This document shows, piece by piece, positions 18,414 to 58,203 of a stretch of DNA of 64,000 nucleotides; position 1 is the first letter of the stretch; the number at the start of each line of letters is the position of its first letter. Below the pieces are notes generated by a model. That model was not told the DNA's origin and made no database searches. It saw only the letters and a program-made list of their open reading frames with translations. The stretch covers positions 18,781 to 82,780 of the IMG/VR virus record IMGVR_UViG_3300033073_000489. One strand, given 5' to 3'. Made by a program: the position numbers and the translations under genes. Source of the DNA: a virus (taxonomy: Duplodnaviria; Caudoviricetes).

Positions 18414-19439
18414 TTAATCTGCTTTCTTGATTTCTTTAACCAATTGCTCACTACCTGGAACATAATGATATGCTCTAAAGTATTGTTGAGGAGCAGCTTC
18501 TCTTAGAGTAGCTGTTTCTTCTGCAGAAATTTCTTTAATTGTTACACCGTTAGCTACAGCATTGTCTTCGTATGCTTGCGCATCATCTAACGACCACTGA
18601 CGTTCTAACTTAGCAACAACCTTTGCTGCTTTCTTAAACACAGCTTGTTGTTCTGCTGTTAACGAATCAAAGAATGGTCCACCAACTAAGATAGTTGTTA
18701 AGAACATGCTGTGGTTTGTTTTGAGAACATTTTTACCTGCAAAGCGTAGATAAGTAGTTTCAATAGCACCACCTTTAGCTACTTGCTCTGCTGTTTGATC
18801 AATCTTCTGATTCATTCTGCTAGTTGCCTTAGCAGTAAATCTTTCAAAGAATGTGCGAGTCATTGGTGTTGTAGTAATGTCTACAGTCTTTAATGCTTCA
18901 ACACTTTCAATTGGGTGATTAGATCCAACAATGCGATATCCACCTGAGTAAGTAAATGCTAGGCCTTTGACGTTAGTCTTGTCTCCTAGTTCCTTACATA
19001 GTGAATCACCGATTTCACCGTCTAATACTTTGCTAACGTGATCGTGACTGTTAAACAAGAAAGGCAAATCTAAAGTAGCAAACTTATCGTGCAAGTGTCC
19101 GCCGATAACTGTTACTTGTGTTTGGCTTAAATGAATCTTACCGTCGCGCATGCCGTTAAACATTGCAGCCCATTTCTTAGTTACGTCTTTCCATTCAATA
19201 GGAGTAAAGAAGTCACTGTTAGGCAACGACTCGATCCCGTCGACTGTTCCTGGGCGCATTTGAAGTTCTGGAATATCTCCATACTTTTCAATATACTGTT
19301 TCATGGTTAAAATTTCAATCTCAAACTGCCCTGGTAATTCTTTTTCTAGTTCAGCAGCAAATGCTTCTGCTGTTCTAACAAACAAATAGGCAGGTTGGTG
19401 AGCAATTAACCAACGTAGTTTCATAGGTCCTTGAGACAT
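18414..19439 (-). CDS. TRAP DctP-like solute-binding protein, no signal peptide
   Basis: LDLPFLFNSHDH, GLAFTYSGGYR, FDSLTAEQQAVFKKAA. Confidence 0.8.
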   Translation of the reverse strand: MSQGPMKLRWLIAHQPAYLFVRTAEAFAAELEKELPGQFEIEILTMKQYIEKYGDIPELQMRPGTVDGIESLPNSDFFTPIEWKDVTKKWAAMFNGMRDGKIHLSQTQVTVIGGHLHDKFATLDLPFLFNSHDHVSKVLDGEIGDSLCKELGDKTNVKGLAFTYSGGYRIVGSNHPIESVEALKTVDITTTPMTRTFFERFTAKATSRMNQKIDQTAEQVAKGGAIETTYLRFAGKNVLKTNHSMFLTTILVGGPFFDSLTAEQQAVFKKAAKVVAKLERQWSLDDAQAYEDNAVANGVTIKEISAEETATLREAAPQQYFRAYHYVPGSEQLVKEIKKAD

Positions 19440-45683: not shown

Positions 45684-45761
45684 TGGTGCCCCATCTCTGA
45701 TTCGAACAGAGAGAACTTCTCCTTTTGAGAGAGACGACTTTACCAATTTGTCCAATGGGGC
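45684..45761 (-). tRNA. tRNA-Leu(CAA), short extra arm
   Basis: Loop CUCAAAA; only a 6-nt variable region. Confidence 0.82.
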
Positions 45762-51564: not shown

Positions 51565-52017
51565 TTAGAACGAATATTTCAAACCAGCAGTTACAACGTT
51601 ACCGTCGAACGAGCTAACACGGTTCTGACCGTATTGACGATCAACTGACAAAGTTGCCGCTACATTTTTTGCAAGCGGAGCAACTGCGCCAACACCAACT
51701 GTGACAGCCGAACCGTCTTCGCCAGTTTGGTTATTCAAGTAAGCATAGCCAACACGGCCTGTTAGGCTAACTGGACCTGCTTTGAATACCTCACGACTAC
51801 CGACCAATGTAACACGAGTTTGGTCGTTAGCTTCGCGATTGAAGCGGCTAAGACCTGCGGTTACATTGTAAGCGCCAAAGTTCTCACCAACGGTGACACC
51901 ATAACCATAACGGTTTGGATTTGGAGTTGTTTGGTCAACTGCGGTAACGCCTACTTCGATTGCTGAAGCTGCGATTGCGGCTGTTGCCAAGATTGTTGCG
52001 ATTGCAAATTTTTTCAT
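51565..52017 (-). CDS. Outer-membrane beta-barrel protein
   Basis: Signal peptide, alternating beta strands, C-terminal KYSF. Confidence 0.8.
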   Translation of the reverse strand: MKKFAIATILATAAIAASAIEVGVTAVDQTTPNPNRYGYGVTVGENFGAYNVTAGLSRFNREANDQTRVTLVGSREVFKAGPVSLTGRVGYAYLNNQTGEDGSAVTVGVGAVAPLAKNVAATLSVDRQYGQNRVSSFDGNVVTAGLKYSF

Positions 52018-52101: not shown

Positions 52102-52674
52102 TTAACTATACTCAAATGGTGTGCTAGGGTGTCCATAGTCTACCTTAATGTCATCGCCTTTAATGTTATCATACTCTGTATAATAAGACTCATTTGGCTT
52201 TACTTCATGCCAGTCATTGTATTTGATTTGAGCTAGCATGACTTCCTTTTTACTCAAGAGATCACAAATAATAAATGTGCTAGAACATCGACCTTGGATA
52301 GTTTTAAATGGGCTATGTTTGTATTCGTTTTGTAACAGTCCTTTATGGATGCCACTACCGGGACGAAACATAATCCGTGTGATGCCCAACTTCTGATTGC
52401 GAAGTCTAAATTTATCGTAGATGGTGAGTTCTGTTAATGTAGCTTCGTTGTCATCGCTAACACGCAGGAGTGCGTTCTTAACTTTGATGCTACCTTTGGT
52501 ATGACTGTTGTCGGGTGTTTCCTTAGTGCTCCAAGGAATGCTACAGTCTACATGATTGACATATAATGTCTCCCCATGAAATTTTAAGACCCACATGGGA
52601 ACAGTTTGGTCTTCTAAGTGTTTTTTATTAAAATGGAACACTACGTCCTTACAAGCATATTCAATCTATTTCAT
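52102..52674 (-). CDS. Conserved-looking phage protein with in-frame TAG at codon 3
   Basis: GGAGA-N6-ATG AAA TAG ATT GAA TAT GCT TGT AAG GAC GTA GTG TTC CAT, in frame with track ORF 52102-52641. Confidence 0.6.
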
Positions 52675-52677
52675 TTT

Positions 52678-52824
52678 TTATCTCCAAGTTTTTTGTGCGA
52701 TCCAATGTTGGATCTCCTGAACCTTCCATGCTAGCCCCCATGGCAACATGAAAGGAATTTTATTTCCATTAGGAGTATACATAGTTTTACCATCGTTGTC
52801 GACGCCCATCAATCCAATAAACAT
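52678..52824 (-). CDS. Small hypothetical protein (48 aa)
   Basis: GGGAGA SD; MFIGLMGVDNDGK...KTWR. Confidence 0.55.
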   Translation of the reverse strand: MFIGLMGVDNDGKTMYTPNGNKIPFMLPWGLAWKVQEIQHWIAQKTWR

Positions 52825-53011
52825 AAGTTTCTCCCTTGTTGGATATTTAGTATAACATCTTATTTAAAATAAGCAAGAACGGCTTTTATCAAAAGTAAGG
52901 CTCCGAATATTGCCATTAAGCAAATTCCCCAAATGATCATTATAGCTTTAATAATTCCGTTATCTGCTAATCTATATAGCCATCGTTGATGTGTTGGTTT
53001 ATCGTGGTGAC

Positions 53012-53794
53012 TCATCTTCCGGTCCATATTTTTGGCTCTGCATCTCTTCTTCTTTGTTCCTCAGTCTTAGGCATCCAACCAGTTCCTAAGTGCGGATATT
53101 TCTGTATACGATCTTCTACCACTAAAGCAAATGCTACTCCAACGGATGATGCAAGGAATAGAGCGCCTACTCCTAATGCAATATCAATATGTATACGGTC
53201 CATACGCTTTCTACGTTTAAGTCTAGCCGCATACTCATCTTTCATTTGTTTGGCAATGAGCACTTCTTGCTCAGCCCCCATTACTTTCATCATCTCAGAT
53301 ACTTCAGTGTATAGTGCGCCTAGCTCTGGAGGACTTTGATAAACCATTAGTTCACGAAGTTCTGTCCCCATTTGCTCTAATTGCTTACGCATTAGAATAC
53401 GTTGCAAGGCACGTTTGCCTATACTAGCATCACCTGTGTAGACTTCGTTATGGGCACGTTTTTCTTCTTCGTTAAAAATAGCAAGACACTTGTAATAGTT
53501 GTCGTAGTATTGACCTAAGTGTTCGCCAATCTCTGCGTAGACGCCAGTTGTTTCTCCAGCGTTAGCTTTTTTGTTAAGTTCAATAACTTCATTCTTTTGT
53601 TTAATAAAGTTATTCTTTTGTTCAACCGTAGGAGGTTTGTCTGGAGGATGCAATTTCTTAAATTGCTCATCCATATCTTTGATGACGTCCTTAACTTCCC
53701 CGGCCGCACCTTTAATATCTCTATATAGTTTACACCCTGCCTTAACTGCTGAAACCGCTCCGTTAGCAAGGGCAAATAGCGTCATTGGATCCAT
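53012..53794 (-). CDS. Coiled-coil membrane-anchored hypothetical protein
   Basis: MDPMTLFALANGAVSAVK N-terminus, helical core, C-terminal TM segment. Confidence 0.7.
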   Translation of the reverse strand: MDPMTLFALANGAVSAVKAGCKLYRDIKGAAGEVKDVIKDMDEQFKKLHPPDKPPTVEQKNNFIKQKNEVIELNKKANAGETTGVYAEIGEHLGQYYDNYYKCLAIFNEEEKRAHNEVYTGDASIGKRALQRILMRKQLEQMGTELRELMVYQSPPELGALYTEVSEMMKVMGAEQEVLIAKQMKDEYAARLKRRKRMDRIHIDIALGVGALFLASSVGVAFALVVEDRIQKYPHLGTGWMPKTEEQRRRDAEPKIWTGR

Positions 53795-53831
53795 TATACC
53801 GCTCCTGGATCATAATACTATTATTTAATAA

Positions 53832-53853
53832 AAAAGGGCCCGAAGGCCCTTTT
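53832..53853 (-). terminator. Intrinsic terminator
   Basis: AAAAGGGCC-UUCG-GGCCCTTTT, same as 51529. Confidence 0.85.
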
Positions 53854-53873
53854 AGGATAGTTAAGTGCGTATA

Positions 53874-54638
53874 TTACGCAAATATTTCTAATGCAGTTCC
53901 GCACTCGACACAAAACTTAGCATGAGCTTTGTTTTGCTTGCCGCAAGTTACACACTTGGGCTTATGCTTAACTGTAACAGGTTTTACTACAGGTTTGTTA
54001 TCACCCAAGTCGCCGACTAGTTTCAACACAATGTTGTGAATAGTAGGATCAAGTGCGCCCATTGTAACTGTAGTGAAGCTCTGTGTTGACTTACTACCGG
54101 GAACAGTAATACCAGTTTCGTTCTTAAAGCTAGCGGCTTGTGCTGATACATTTACACTATTGAGTGTAGCACCGGATGCTGTAACAGAACTATAGGTTGC
54201 GCTCATTGGACCGGCCCAGTCTCCTGTGCTACCGCTAATACCACGAAGGGTAGTATTACTCCACAAAGGTTGGATGACAGGGCGTGAGATCTCAAATTGA
54301 TATTCGATGCGAACAAGGCCATCTTCTAGTTTAATGCCGCGTGGGCCGTCTTCGATTGCCTGTGTGCGTTCAATGAACTTAAATTTGTTACCTTCGGAGA
54401 GATTGCCGTTTTTAATCCAACGCTCTAAGTCGACAGTCCGACCCGGGTCTACAACCAATCCGCCGGGAACGACATTCTCTCCGTCGATAAACACATTTAC
54501 GACAGCACGAACAGTATTGAGGTTTTTGAGTAAGATGCTATATTCGCTTGCAAATGGAATATAGACTGTGTCCTTAAATTCACGTAGGACTTTTCCGTTG
54601 GCTTTTACGCTCGCCACGAGCTTTTGATTATACATCAT
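53874..54638 (-). CDS. Hypothetical protein with C-terminal zinc ribbon
   Basis: EYSILLKN N-domain; CVTCG...FCVECG. Confidence 0.75.
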   Translation of the reverse strand: MMYNQKLVASVKANGKVLREFKDTVYIPFASEYSILLKNLNTVRAVVNVFIDGENVVPGGLVVDPGRTVDLERWIKNGNLSEGNKFKFIERTQAIEDGPRGIKLEDGLVRIEYQFEISRPVIQPLWSNTTLRGISGSTGDWAGPMSATYSSVTASGATLNSVNVSAQAASFKNETGITVPGSKSTQSFTTVTMGALDPTIHNIVLKLVGDLGDNKPVVKPVTVKHKPKCVTCGKQNKAHAKFCVECGTALEIFA

Positions 54639-54723
54639 TTTTCTTCCTTTTTACTGGCTACACTCTAAAGCCATATTAATTTAAAGAGTGTTGGTTGCGG
54701 ACCTTCCGCAAATTTATTTAGTA

Positions 54724-54963
54724 TTACATTAGAGAACCAGGTATAACATTGAACAATGCATCTCCTGCTCTTTGATCAAAAGGAACACCGTTTCCTGCAA
54801 TATATTGTGCATCAGAACGTTCGTTCTGTCCTTGACCGACACCAATGTAGTATTTGAAGTTAGCTTCACCGGTTTGGCGGTATGTATCGCGTTCATGCTC
54901 TTGAACAATCTGCACAATGCCAATACACTCGTTACCTGCAAACCAAATTTGATTAGTAATCAT
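54724..54963 (-). CDS. Hypothetical protein
   Basis: 79 aa, CIGIVQ...KYYIG. Confidence 0.6.
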   Translation of the reverse strand: MITNQIWFAGNECIGIVQIVQEHERDTYRQTGEANFKYYIGVGQGQNERSDAQYIAGNGVPFDQRAGDALFNVIPGSLM

Positions 54964-54976
54964 ATAAAATGTTTAG

Positions 54977-55051
54977 TGGTGCGCTAGACAGGATTCGAAC
55001 CTGCTACACGGCGGTTTAGAGTCGCCTACCCTTCCAACGGGAGACTAGCGC
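54977..55051 (-). tRNA. Amber suppressor tRNA (anticodon CUA)
   Basis: GCGCUAG/CUAGCGC-ACCA, GGCGA-CUCUAAA-CCGCC, canonical T arm. Confidence 0.85.
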
Positions 55052-55058
55052 ACGTTAA

Positions 55059-56030
55059 TTACTTTTGAGCAAAGGGCCAAGCACCTGCTTCAACTTTTGC
55101 TGTTGTATAGCGATAACGTTCGTTGCCGCCATACTTGCGATCGTCTGTGCCTTTTTCAAAGCCTTCGCGGTAGTCACGACGGTCTTTACCAAAGTGGTCA
55201 TCAGTTGCATTGTAGCTACCTTGCCAACCTGCTGAATAGCCTGCATAGAACGGGCTGTTACCCAACTTAGGACCTGCATATACAGGCTTGCTACCGACTG
55301 CTGTAGACTGCACAGGCTTAGTGAACGCATCTTCCGGCTCAACGTTCAGTTCACCGATCACCTCGTAGCGGCAAGCACGACCCTTAGCTTGATTGTAGTC
55401 GCTTGGGATACTGACAACGTCACGTGGGTTAACCTTGACAATAACTGTGCGAGCACCACCGAAGCTAGACAAGTAGCTCATGCCACAGAAGTGCAAACCT
55501 GTTGAACAAGTTTCGTCTTTGTTGTCGTTAACTTCGTGGCGTTCCATCTCAACAACATTACCAACGGAGTTATCCATTGTGCCGCTATGAACGTCAAAGT
55601 AGTTATCACGAACTTTCTTGTATGCCAGGAAGTGGCCGTCTGGAGTAATCGGCAATGCGTTCTTTTCCAAGAAGCCATACAGTTCTGTAACTGCACGGTG
55701 ACTTGGGTTTTGATACAAGTTCTCCATGAAGTTAACCATTGGCTCAATTGGGAAGCCATCTTGCAACATTTGGATCATACGCACCGACAAGCCAGTGTTC
55801 AGTTCCTTACCTTTCCAGAACAACGTTTCACCTTGGATAGACACATTGCCTTGTCCGTAGTTCAACACGACCTTCTTAGGTTCGATAATATCGGGCAAGG
55901 CATCCCAGTCCTCTGCCTTGATTGCGTCCAACACCTTTTGATAAGTGATGTGCGTCTTGCTAACGGTGTGCGATTTATTGCCAATAACGACAACAATGTT
56001 ATTACCTTGAATCAAATATGGGTAAGCCAT
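55059..56030 (-). CDS. rIIB-like protein
   Basis: Start MAYPYL; PITPDGHFLAYKKV, CSTGLHFC, VKVNPRDVVSIPSDY...RACRYEV. Confidence 0.85.
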   Translation of the reverse strand: MAYPYLIQGNNIVVVIGNKSHTVSKTHITYQKVLDAIKAEDWDALPDIIEPKKVVLNYGQGNVSIQGETLFWKGKELNTGLSVRMIQMLQDGFPIEPMVNFMENLYQNPSHRAVTELYGFLEKNALPITPDGHFLAYKKVRDNYFDVHSGTMDNSVGNVVEMERHEVNDNKDETCSTGLHFCGMSYLSSFGGARTVIVKVNPRDVVSIPSDYNQAKGRACRYEVIGELNVEPEDAFTKPVQSTAVGSKPVYAGPKLGNSPFYAGYSAGWQGSYNATDDHFGKDRRDYREGFEKGTDDRKYGGNERYRYTTAKVEAGAWPFAQK

Positions 56031-56031
56031 T

Positions 56032-58203
56032 TTAAATACCTTTCTGTGTGTCAACCATGTTAACATATTCGGCAACTTCTGCGTTAGGGGCACTACGCAA
56101 GTAGGCCAGCAACGGATACCGTTTGTCAATGGTTGCACATTCATCAACAAACTTTTGAACAAAAGCCTCTGGGCTAAAGTTAACGCCGGGGGCATAACGA
56201 TTGCACAAACGCTTCAAACTGTGTTCGCTATAACGAATCTTTTCGTAGCCCTTAAATTGATTAACCAATTTCAAATATGGGCTATTAGGATTAGCAATAG
56301 CGTCAACGATATTAGCAGTATAACTGAGCAAGTTAAAATTGTCAACAGCCTGCATTACCAAACTCATCATTAATTTATGATCAACGACTTTCAATTGGCT
56401 TGCAATGTGAGTTTCAATGTTAACCCAATTCTTCTTGTTCTTGATAGCGTTGATATCGCTCTTACGAACACCGTAGATAGTCTGCTTCAGACCAGTAACA
56501 CCGCACTCCTTCAAATCGTTGTAAAACTCTTTGACATTAGACATGCTGTAGTTACTTTGAACTGTGTAGCCGCTCAAAGGCAAGTAGTAGAAAGTTTCTT
56601 GGTCGCTGAATGTGTCCAGCTTGCCTGCATCTTTCCAAACCATTTCTTTTTCACGATAGTATCCACCGTAGCCACGTTCTTGCATTACCAAGATTGTAAC
56701 GTTCTTGCCCAAGCCAGAATCAACACGATCTTTCTTCAAAAGCGCACTCGCCACATGACGTGTATTTTCAGGTGGGTTAGACAGCATCTTAAAGAATGCC
56801 TTTGTGTTTACAGGCTTAGTCCGGTCATATGCTTCGATAACAAACACTGATTGGCTATATGGGCCGTTAGGATCAGCAACTGTGTTTCTCCAGTGATACT
56901 TAGCACGTTCCAACGCACCAACATTTGTATCGTTTACAACAAAATTAATACCTGCTTGAACAGGAATAACCCAAGAATAAATTGTCTTCACAGGAGTTGT
57001 GGAACGATCGTGTTCAACACACTCTTTCAAAGAAGAACAAGCGGCATTACCGCGGCTCTTTGTAAAGCCACGAATAATCATATTGTATTTGGTCTTCAGC
57101 ATGTCAACATCCAAGTTGAAACGCTTCAAAGCATTATAGCCACCGTGCTTGCCAGGTGCATACAATTCAAACTTAGTGTCCGCAATGTATTTGTTTACTG
57201 CCGCTTGCCACAAGTATGAGTCGCCTTTCTTTTGCAAGAACAACGCACGATCCCACAGGTTAGTGATAGCATCAGCTTCTTTGGCCAACACAGTAGTCAA
57301 AGCAACATTAAGGGCTTCTAGCTTCTTCTTGATAGCAGCCACAGTTTCTGGAATATAGCTCAAGCCTTCACGTGACGCTTGGAAGTCCAATTCGCCAATG
57401 TCAAAGTGCATTTCCAAACCACAGTTCAACAAGTTGCGAACATGCGCCAATGTTTTGTCTGCGTCTGGGATTTGAATAGGGTATGCAATATTGCCCATAA
57501 TAGCTGTGCTACTACGGGCGCCTTTGTAGGAATGCACACCCGGAATAATATTCTTGCTTTCGTATTCAACATCTGCAAATTTAAAATCTGCATTGCCAGA
57601 AATAACAGGGCGCAATGTAAAGTAAGTGTAAACTTGGCGAGCTTCTTGACGGAACTTGTCAAAGTCGTAACGATCGTTGACGCTGAACTTAACTTCAACG
57701 CCAGCAGGCTCATTGGTCGCTTCAGTCATCATTTGTGCAATACTAGGCACACCTTGCTCGTTAATAAAAGCGGTGTAGATGCCTTTTACGCCATCTTTGA
57801 TAGCGGTTACTGTGAAGTTATCCGTGTAAGAAAATGGTGACTTTGAGCCAAGACCAAGAGCACCAATAAAATCATTGCTACCAGTTTTAGTGGATTCAAA
57901 ATAAGTTGTATAAATGTTTGTAACTTGTTCATGAGAAAGGCCTGTGCCATAGTCGCGAATGGAGAACCAAGGTTCCAACGTATTTGGAAGATGGACATCA
58001 AATGGAGTATCTTGTTTGCCTGCGGCAACGTGTGAGTCAACTGCATTACAAGACAGTTCACGAACGATAGCACGGATCTTGTTAGCATACAAGCCCGAAC
58101 TCAAAATGTTAAATGCTTTCGCAGAATTGCGAATACGGAACTCGCCGATTTCACCAACGTTAGAAACAATAGCTTCGTTAACTGGAGCATTGTTGAGAAT
58201 CAT
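56032..58203 (-). CDS. rIIA-like protein (GHKL ATPase N-domain)
   Basis: RELSCNAVDSH, IRDYGTGLS, STK, GALGLGSKS. Confidence 0.88.
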   Translation of the reverse strand: MILNNAPVNEAIVSNVGEIGEFRIRNSAKAFNILSSGLYANKIRAIVRELSCNAVDSHVAAGKQDTPFDVHLPNTLEPWFSIRDYGTGLSHEQVTNIYTTYFESTKTGSNDFIGALGLGSKSPFSYTDNFTVTAIKDGVKGIYTAFINEQGVPSIAQMMTEATNEPAGVEVKFSVNDRYDFDKFRQEARQVYTYFTLRPVISGNADFKFADVEYESKNIIPGVHSYKGARSSTAIMGNIAYPIQIPDADKTLAHVRNLLNCGLEMHFDIGELDFQASREGLSYIPETVAAIKKKLEALNVALTTVLAKEADAITNLWDRALFLQKKGDSYLWQAAVNKYIADTKFELYAPGKHGGYNALKRFNLDVDMLKTKYNMIIRGFTKSRGNAACSSLKECVEHDRSTTPVKTIYSWVIPVQAGINFVVNDTNVGALERAKYHWRNTVADPNGPYSQSVFVIEAYDRTKPVNTKAFFKMLSNPPENTRHVASALLKKDRVDSGLGKNVTILVMQERGYGGYYREKEMVWKDAGKLDTFSDQETFYYLPLSGYTVQSNYSMSNVKEFYNDLKECGVTGLKQTIYGVRKSDINAIKNKKNWVNIETHIASQLKVVDHKLMMSLVMQAVDNFNLLSYTANIVDAIANPNSPYLKLVNQFKGYEKIRYSEHSLKRLCNRYAPGVNFSPEAFVQKFVDECATIDKRYPLLAYLRSAPNAEVAEYVNMVDTQKGI

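Follow-up and report, generated by a model that had tools for sequence, protein, structure and literature searches.

Why would a phage that otherwise uses the standard genetic code carry a tRNA with the amber anticodon CUA and, on the same strand, a gene whose third codon is TAG? The question is raised by a stretch of 64,000 nucleotides of Caudoviricetes DNA (hereafter 'the window'; positions 18,781 to 82,780 of IMG/VR virus record IMGVR_UViG_3300033073_000489). This stretch belongs to an 82.8-kb contig from a large T4-like lake phage, the contig covering ~23% of one genome. An initial annotation, made from the letters of the window alone, had paired the tRNA with the gene and had proposed either gene-specific amber gating or an early stage of recoding, rather than genome-wide reading of TAG as a sense codon (code 15). 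We describe the gene, called the gated gene in what follows, and trace it through close and distant relatives. TAG is kept in every relative examined, a pattern for that reason far beyond chance, and we consider it probable that the locus is a dedicated suppressor-tRNA gate, in which a phage tRNA(CUA) has the gated gene as its sole recognisable client.

Reading frame and start of the gated gene

The gated gene lies on the minus strand. A Shine-Dalgarno (SD) sequence, GGAGA (52681-52685), is followed after 6 nt by the two-codon leader ATG AAA (Met-Lys, 52669-52674, with ATG at 52674-52672) and by the in-frame TAG of codon 3 (52666-52668), which is the gate. Beyond the TAG the frame continues with ATT GAA TAT GCT TGT and runs for 187 sense codons to a TAA (52102-52104), confirming the open frame that had first drawn attention to the locus. 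The gene is 2.3 kb downstream of the tRNA(CUA) gene (54977-55051), on the same strand.

Ordinary open reading frame (ORF) calling starts the protein instead at GTG (52639-52641), residue 12 of the frame above, for a product of 179 amino acids, and many database entries are called in this way. An SD-like AAGGA lies 4 nt upstream of the GTG, within coding sequence; it speaks for such a start, and the statement in the initial annotation that the GTG has no comparable SD was too strong. The choice between the two starts, with ATG-AAA-TAG a mere coincidence if GTG is correct, was made by comparison among relatives.

Conservation of the TAG and translation past it

Megablast with the region found no matching DNA among GenBank phages. 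A protein-guided scan of viral contigs yielded 80 loci with 62-91% protein identity; TAG was at the same site in 80/80, and every locus had an SD, an ATG and a short leader ahead of it. Exact-context scans were run with the codon at the TAG site left free, so that sense codons could show. None appeared, all family members having TAG in viral contigs (26/26) and in metagenomes (60/60). The same TAG thus recurs in well over 100 independent contigs and is not an assembly error.

For codon-level counts the sequences were collapsed to 44 distinct versions. TAG is present in 44/44, and the codon after it is Ile in 44/44 (ATT 39, ATC 4, ATA 1). The eight codons that follow vary mostly synonymously (GAA/GAG, TAT/TAC, GCT/GCA/GCG, TGT/TGC, GAT/GAC), so that over the nine codons between TAG and GTG the residues are constant and the changes synonymous; in a confident structure model these residues form beta-strand 1. 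The supposed GTG start is itself GTG in 20/44 versions and GTC, GTT or GTA in 24/44, encoding Val in 44/44, and is probably just a Val codon. The leader, in contrast to the residues past the TAG, is variable: of the amino-terminal stretch that the initial annotation had marked for alignment, the part past the TAG proved conserved with TAG in all relatives, while Met-Lys gave way to leaders mostly of 2-4 codons (MK, MA, MS, MSK, MTQK and others). Whatever the leader length, GGAG or AAGGA stands at a constant distance from the ATG.

This pattern of substitution indicates that the stretch past the TAG is under protein-level selection. Since its variation is synonymous and the GTG is not a conserved start, we take the stretch to be translated from upstream. 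A protein starting at GTG 52641 is very improbable: the codon is not kept as a start, the nine residues ahead of it are conserved and build the first strand, and homology to distant phages (below) begins ahead of it.

The same gene occurs in databases in two protein forms, one of 164-181 amino acids cut at GTG or ATG, mostly from longer contigs, and one of 189-193 amino acids with Q at the TAG site, from short contigs. No CAA or CAG was found at the site in any scanned DNA, so the Q is best read as the product of a code-15 gene call. The gene therefore appears to be subject to a systematic annotation error, either truncated to a false GTG/ATG start or given a 'Q' by code-15 models.

The putative suppressor tRNA

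Of the window's 43 tRNA genes, every one of them on the minus strand, ARAGORN gives exactly one a stop-reading anticodon. This tRNA(CUA) is well-formed, as the initial annotation held, scoring 41.3 bits over its full length against the Rfam tRNA model (gathering score 29), and has an encoded CCA and discriminator A73. Among 40 distinct tRNAs from relatives, the CUA anticodon, U33, A37, G1-C72, C2-G71, A73 and the encoded CCA are invariant, pair 3-70 is G-C in 39/40 and A-U in one, and 12/16 predicted stem pairs have compensatory changes. Such invariant elements together with compensatory changes argue for a working tRNA under selection.

The tRNA is also linked to the gene. A same-strand tRNA(CUA) was found at most 3 kb from the gated gene in 60/80 loci, often at 30-250 nt; in some of the other 20 the flank is too short to tell. 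A covariance model run on five long contigs ranked first, in 5/5, a tRNA(CUA) on the same strand, 3.7-8 kb away; the next-best hits varied by genome (Lys, Arg, Met).

Two identities were tried, and neither fitted. Identity elements of tRNA-Gln are G73 and a weak 1-72 pair, which the phage's own tRNA-Gln has; the invariant A73 and G1-C72 of the tRNA(CUA) do not match a Gln-type amber suppressor. The ARAGORN label 'tRNA-Pyl' names the anticodon only, and no PylRS-type core (PF01409) was found in the contig, itself ~23% of a genome, or in relatives rated 93% and 100% complete. The acceptor stem resembles the phage tRNA-Leu(UAA) and glycine tRNAs with A73, a likeness that is not decisive for the amino acid.

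Genetic code of the phage

If TAG were recoded genome-wide, or were in an early stage of being so, further genes should carry it in frame. Alongside the contig we examined a relative whose 364-kb sequence is rated 100% complete and includes 31 tRNAs, a single one with the anticodon CUA. No stop is rarer than TAG, which ends 5/80 long ORFs in the contig and 22/343 in the complete relative (~6%), in keeping with the rarity noted at the outset, and this scarcity favours recoding, as does the Q that some gene callers put at the site in relatives. TAG nevertheless still terminates genes, and it does not join long frames more often than the other stops do: pairs of long frames joined by a stop number 11 for TAG, 19 for TAA and 18 for TGA in the contig, and 15 for TAG versus 54 (TAA) and 30 (TGA) in the complete relative. 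The arrangement SD-ATG-x-TAG followed by an ORF occurs in the 82.8-kb contig at the gated gene only, and the only convincing early-TAG gene of the complete relative is its homologue. Back-up stops after TAG terminators are not enriched.

The code is otherwise standard in the contig and in the complete relative, and with the pattern confined to one gene, recoding of TAG, whether complete or in its early stage, is scarcely credible. The rejection of genome-wide code 15 in the initial annotation holds, as does gene-specific amber gating, with one gene carrying an invariant stop and a linked tRNA(CUA). Its other suggestion, early recoding, does not, as the arrangement is old and stable: a single-gene layout shared by very distant phages, described next, is not a transitional state.

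The cassette in distant phages

The amino-terminal domain of the gated protein (the N-domain) occurs in three forms: followed by a second domain as in the window, alone, and behind a helical extension. A single-protein locus search with a distant member found nothing; a profile scan recovered 80 more distant loci. Rhizobium phage RHph_I1_18 has an unannotated domain-only gene that reads M-S-E-F-M-TAG; no canonical start codon occurs over the 23 conserved residues that follow, and 12 nt past the end of the gene is a tRNA(CUA).

In many distant loci the order is tRNA(CUA), a gene for a peptidyl-tRNA hydrolase of the Pth2 type (PF01981, 27-64 bits) and a domain gene overlapping the end of the latter. 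The early TAG is then on the Pth2-like gene (for example M-T-TAG-I-N-N-Q or M-K-TAG-I-N-P), and the domain gene starts at an ordinary ATG. One locus is a natural fusion, with early TAG, domain and Pth2-like domain in a single frame. At least one gated gene is present in 56/63 distinct loci and a tRNA(CUA) within 2.5 kb in 44/63. Whichever gene comes first in the cassette has the gate: in distinct loci lacking an adjacent Pth2-like gene, the early TAG is on the domain gene in 21/28.

In the cultured jumbo phages Phosso and Atu_ph07, a Pth2-like gene is followed by a small gene, the domain gene and a phosphatase gene. Among the tRNAs of Phosso is a tRNA(CUA), and an SD with ATG AAG TAT TAG stands in frame ahead of the Pth2-like gene. 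In Agrobacterium phage Atu_ph07 the best match to the tRNA model has the anticodon UCA, and the Pth2-like gene reads ATG ATT GGC GAA CAC TTT TGA, with no ATG, GTG or TTG ahead of the conserved first strand of the Pth2 domain. The starts as annotated leave out 12 profile positions from the beginning of the domain. Were the stop not read by the tRNA, a joint change of stop and anticodon would be difficult to account for.

These loci also bear on the alternative that ATG-AAA-TAG is a separate mini-ORF, after whose termination ribosomes reinitiate at the adjacent AUU, the tRNA serving something else. AUU is a weak bacterial start codon, as in infC, and the Ile codon in all 44 versions of the window's clade is what this alternative would want. 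Distant relatives, however, have AAC, CAA, ACA, GAA or GTN after the stop, and conserved protein sequence precedes any start codon in them. Reinitiation also leaves unexplained both the linkage to tRNA(CUA) and the pairing of TGA with tRNA(UCA) in Atu_ph07, and we consider it improbable.

In two distant loci (L206 and L210) the domain gene has an ordinary ATG and an internal in-frame TAG within the conserved domain (..DP-TAG-GIPPW and ..DP-TAG-NIPPW, respectively), so the stop can sit elsewhere in a gene. Among cultured phages, Pth2-like genes are found too in the Sinorhizobium phiM12 group, Xanthomonas phage Xoo-sp13, Ralstonia phage RsoM2USA and several mycobacteriophages.

The gated protein

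Pfam and PHROGs give no family match for the gated protein. AlphaFold models it confidently, with a pLDDT (predicted local distance difference test) of 89 for the whole protein and 94 for the N-domain alone. The N-domain (52381-52665; residues 1-95) is a beta-barrel plus helix with the motifs FHFNK...PMWV.K...STKETPDN..TKGS. The carboxy-terminal domain (C-domain; 52105-52380; about residues 96-175) is ferredoxin-like, with a conserved, near-invariant R97 and C127.

Structure comparison gave no close relative. Foldseek found no match in the PDB at E <= 0.001 and one uncharacterised homologue only in a viral library. VIA-align of the whole model returned generic ferredoxin-like (ACT/RRM-like) matches that did not exceed Z 5.2, and the fold matches listed for the C-domain (Z 5.2 or lower) include no PTH2 chain. 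The N-domain alone gave many weak rows of the oligonucleotide/oligosaccharide-binding (OB) fold, the best with Z 4.2, and no clear solved relative; the C-domain as an ESM Atlas query gave chance-level rows only.

The association with hydrolases elsewhere made PTH2 (PF01981) itself a candidate for the gated protein. It found no support in sequence, there being no Pfam match and no homology detectable by hhalign between the family and a phage Pth2-like alignment (probability 1.25%). Nor was a separate PF01981 gene found in the window's clade, in which G000, G001, G003 and G004 (the complete 364-kb relative) were checked. The gated protein probably acts on tRNA or peptidyl-tRNA, judging from the company that its N-domain keeps. 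A complex prediction for the Pth2-like and domain proteins of one locus scored 0.20 against a mark of 0.32, and this counts neither for nor against binding.

The complete relative contains a 154-amino acid ORF with a release-factor GGQ domain (PF00472, 70.9 bits; G004:C1:231207-231671, minus strand, equivalent to L366 1435-1899). It lies beside the tRNA cluster, looks like a peptidyl-tRNA hydrolase of the ArfB or PrfH type and has no early TAG. No matching counterpart was found in the window's contig or in G003.

Proposed mechanism

The mechanism that we favour is a gate worked by the phage's own tRNA. Initiation at the SD-ATG would give Met-Lys and bring the ribosome to UAG at codon 3, where charged tRNA(CUA) would compete with release factor 1 (RF1). 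If the tRNA won, a protein of about 190 residues would be made; if RF1 won, only a dipeptide. The protein would thus depend on the activity of the phage tRNA, and the gate could serve timing, or the sensing of suppressor and termination capacity. An A directly after UAG is a context favouring amber suppression in Escherichia coli; A always follows UAG in the window's clade, which fits such a context. We infer that the tRNA is charged and decodes UAG, that the purpose of the gate is regulation, and what the protein does. Our reading is of a gate on a translation-related cassette, not of early recoding.

Several points weigh against this reading. The function of the protein, as we would have it, rests on guilt by association, with no family and no clear solved fold. 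The Ile codon that always follows the TAG is a weak initiator in each of its forms (AUU, AUC, AUA), leaving room for reinitiation. An intrinsic terminator hairpin (GGGCC-UUCG-GGCCC then a U run; 53830-53853, minus strand) stands between the transcription unit of the tRNA and that of the gated gene, so here the two are not one transcript; folding gives it -15 kcal/mol and z -2.35, and a consensus terminator scan did not list it. A strong suppressor should be costly, since TAG ends ~6% of long ORFs and back-up stops are not enriched. A regulatory purpose, finally, is indistinguishable from a tolerated stop that became fixed.

This last point amounts to an alternative of its own, in which the phage tRNA reads UAG with no regulatory role, gene and tRNA having become mutually dependent by neutral entrenchment. 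It is consistent with the variable leader residues, with the failure to find a client beyond the cassette and with the fact that no result shows the purpose of the gate. Under neutral entrenchment, however, stops should turn up at scattered points in genes and be lost frequently. The stop instead invariably comes within the first 2-12 codons of whichever gene leads the cassette (Pth2-like or domain), has never been lost in well over 100 contigs, and the gate was kept through a joint switch from TAG/CUA to TGA/UCA. A stop always early, always on the first gene and never lost argues for function, and we give entrenchment only a small chance.

The suppressor-tRNA gate might also be closed into a loop. 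The cassette could be a read-through homeostat, with the suppressor tRNA itself, or RF1, as the target of the gated protein: the barrel domain would bind tRNA, the second domain would be catalytic (Pth2-type elsewhere, the Cys/Arg domain here), and more read-through would make more of a protein that reduces read-through. We regard this extension as doubtful but conceivable. If true, the phage would keep suppression of UAG, in the host's genes as in its own, at a fixed set point.

Neighbouring genes

The tRNA(CUA) begins 7 nt past the stop codon of an rIIB homologue (55059-56195, minus strand; phrog_609, E 8e-78), and because of this spacing is probably made from the rIIB transcript. A 723-amino acid ORF upstream of rIIB is possibly rIIA, the pair spanning 55059-58203 (minus strand). 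Between the tRNA and the gated gene is a 254-amino acid ORF (53874-54638, minus strand) with a zinc-ribbon at its end (PF13240, 27.4 bits), after which comes the strong terminator described above. Directly downstream of the gated gene, a 150-amino acid ORF (51565-52017, minus strand) has weak matches to outer-membrane beta-barrels, odd for a phage, all under their cut-offs (YfaZ, 21.2 bits; OMP_b-brl, 18.1 bits). Among the other tRNAs of the window, tRNA-Leu(CAA) (45684-45761, minus strand) is 78 nt long with a very short variable arm, while the other two Leu tRNAs are 83 and 85 nt.

Comparison with known systems

Code-15 phages (crAss-like, Lak and others) read TAG as Gln via phage suppressor tRNAs, and the authors of that work propose that suppression times gene expression (10.1101/2021.08.26.457843, PMC9523058). 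The window phage, too, encodes a tRNA(CUA) and has an in-frame TAG in one of its genes, and in both cases the host is taken to follow the standard code. In code-15 phages, however, tens to hundreds of genes have scattered TAGs and TAG is no longer a stop, whereas here one gene has one early TAG, TAG terminates other genes and the tRNA does not resemble tRNA-Gln. On our reading, a standard-code genome can thus house a single-gene switch made of a stop codon and a private tRNA.

The jumbo phages XacN1 and Atu_ph07, which keep the standard code, are likewise large and rich in tRNAs and encode, besides a suppressor (CUA or UCA), a peptidyl-tRNA hydrolase. The XacN1 paper was unable to identify a target gene of its suppressor tRNAs (PMC5852040), and the Atu_ph07 paper named no specific target, only many UGA stops (PMC6102473). 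Here a target is identified, and in Atu_ph07 an early TGA stands in the Pth2-like gene; the orphan suppressor tRNAs of jumbo phages thereby gain a concrete target gene. No paper describing the gated cassette came up in literature searches on Pth2 together with phage, UAG and tRNA. With related versions in three cultured phages (RHph_I1_18, Phosso and Atu_ph07), the idea is testable.

The bar minigenes of phage lambda are short ORFs at which peptidyl-tRNA drop-off is countered by Pth. The gated cassette is like them in its 2-4-codon ORF ending in a stop and its genetic link to peptidyl-tRNA hydrolase; bar minigenes are free-standing, while here a conserved protein continues in frame past the stop. 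The tie between this domain family and Pth2-type hydrolases points to an unexplored phage control over translation, or to a conflict over tRNAs.

In prfB, the gene for RF2, an early in-frame UGA is the site of autoregulation by +1 frameshift, through which the gene senses its own product. Both systems place an early stop in a translation-related gene and make synthesis hang on termination versus an alternative decoding. The phage gene differs in that escape is by a dedicated tRNA, and feedback of its product on UAG decoding is only hypothetical; were the homeostat correct, it would be a tRNA-based counterpart of prfB autoregulation.

The logic of the gate is also that of engineered circuits. 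In a synthetic feed-forward loop, output from a gene with an early TAG needs a co-expressed suppressor tRNA (PMC7969014). The phage cassette appears to be the same design as one that synthetic biologists had to invent, in a version that is natural, ancient and widespread.

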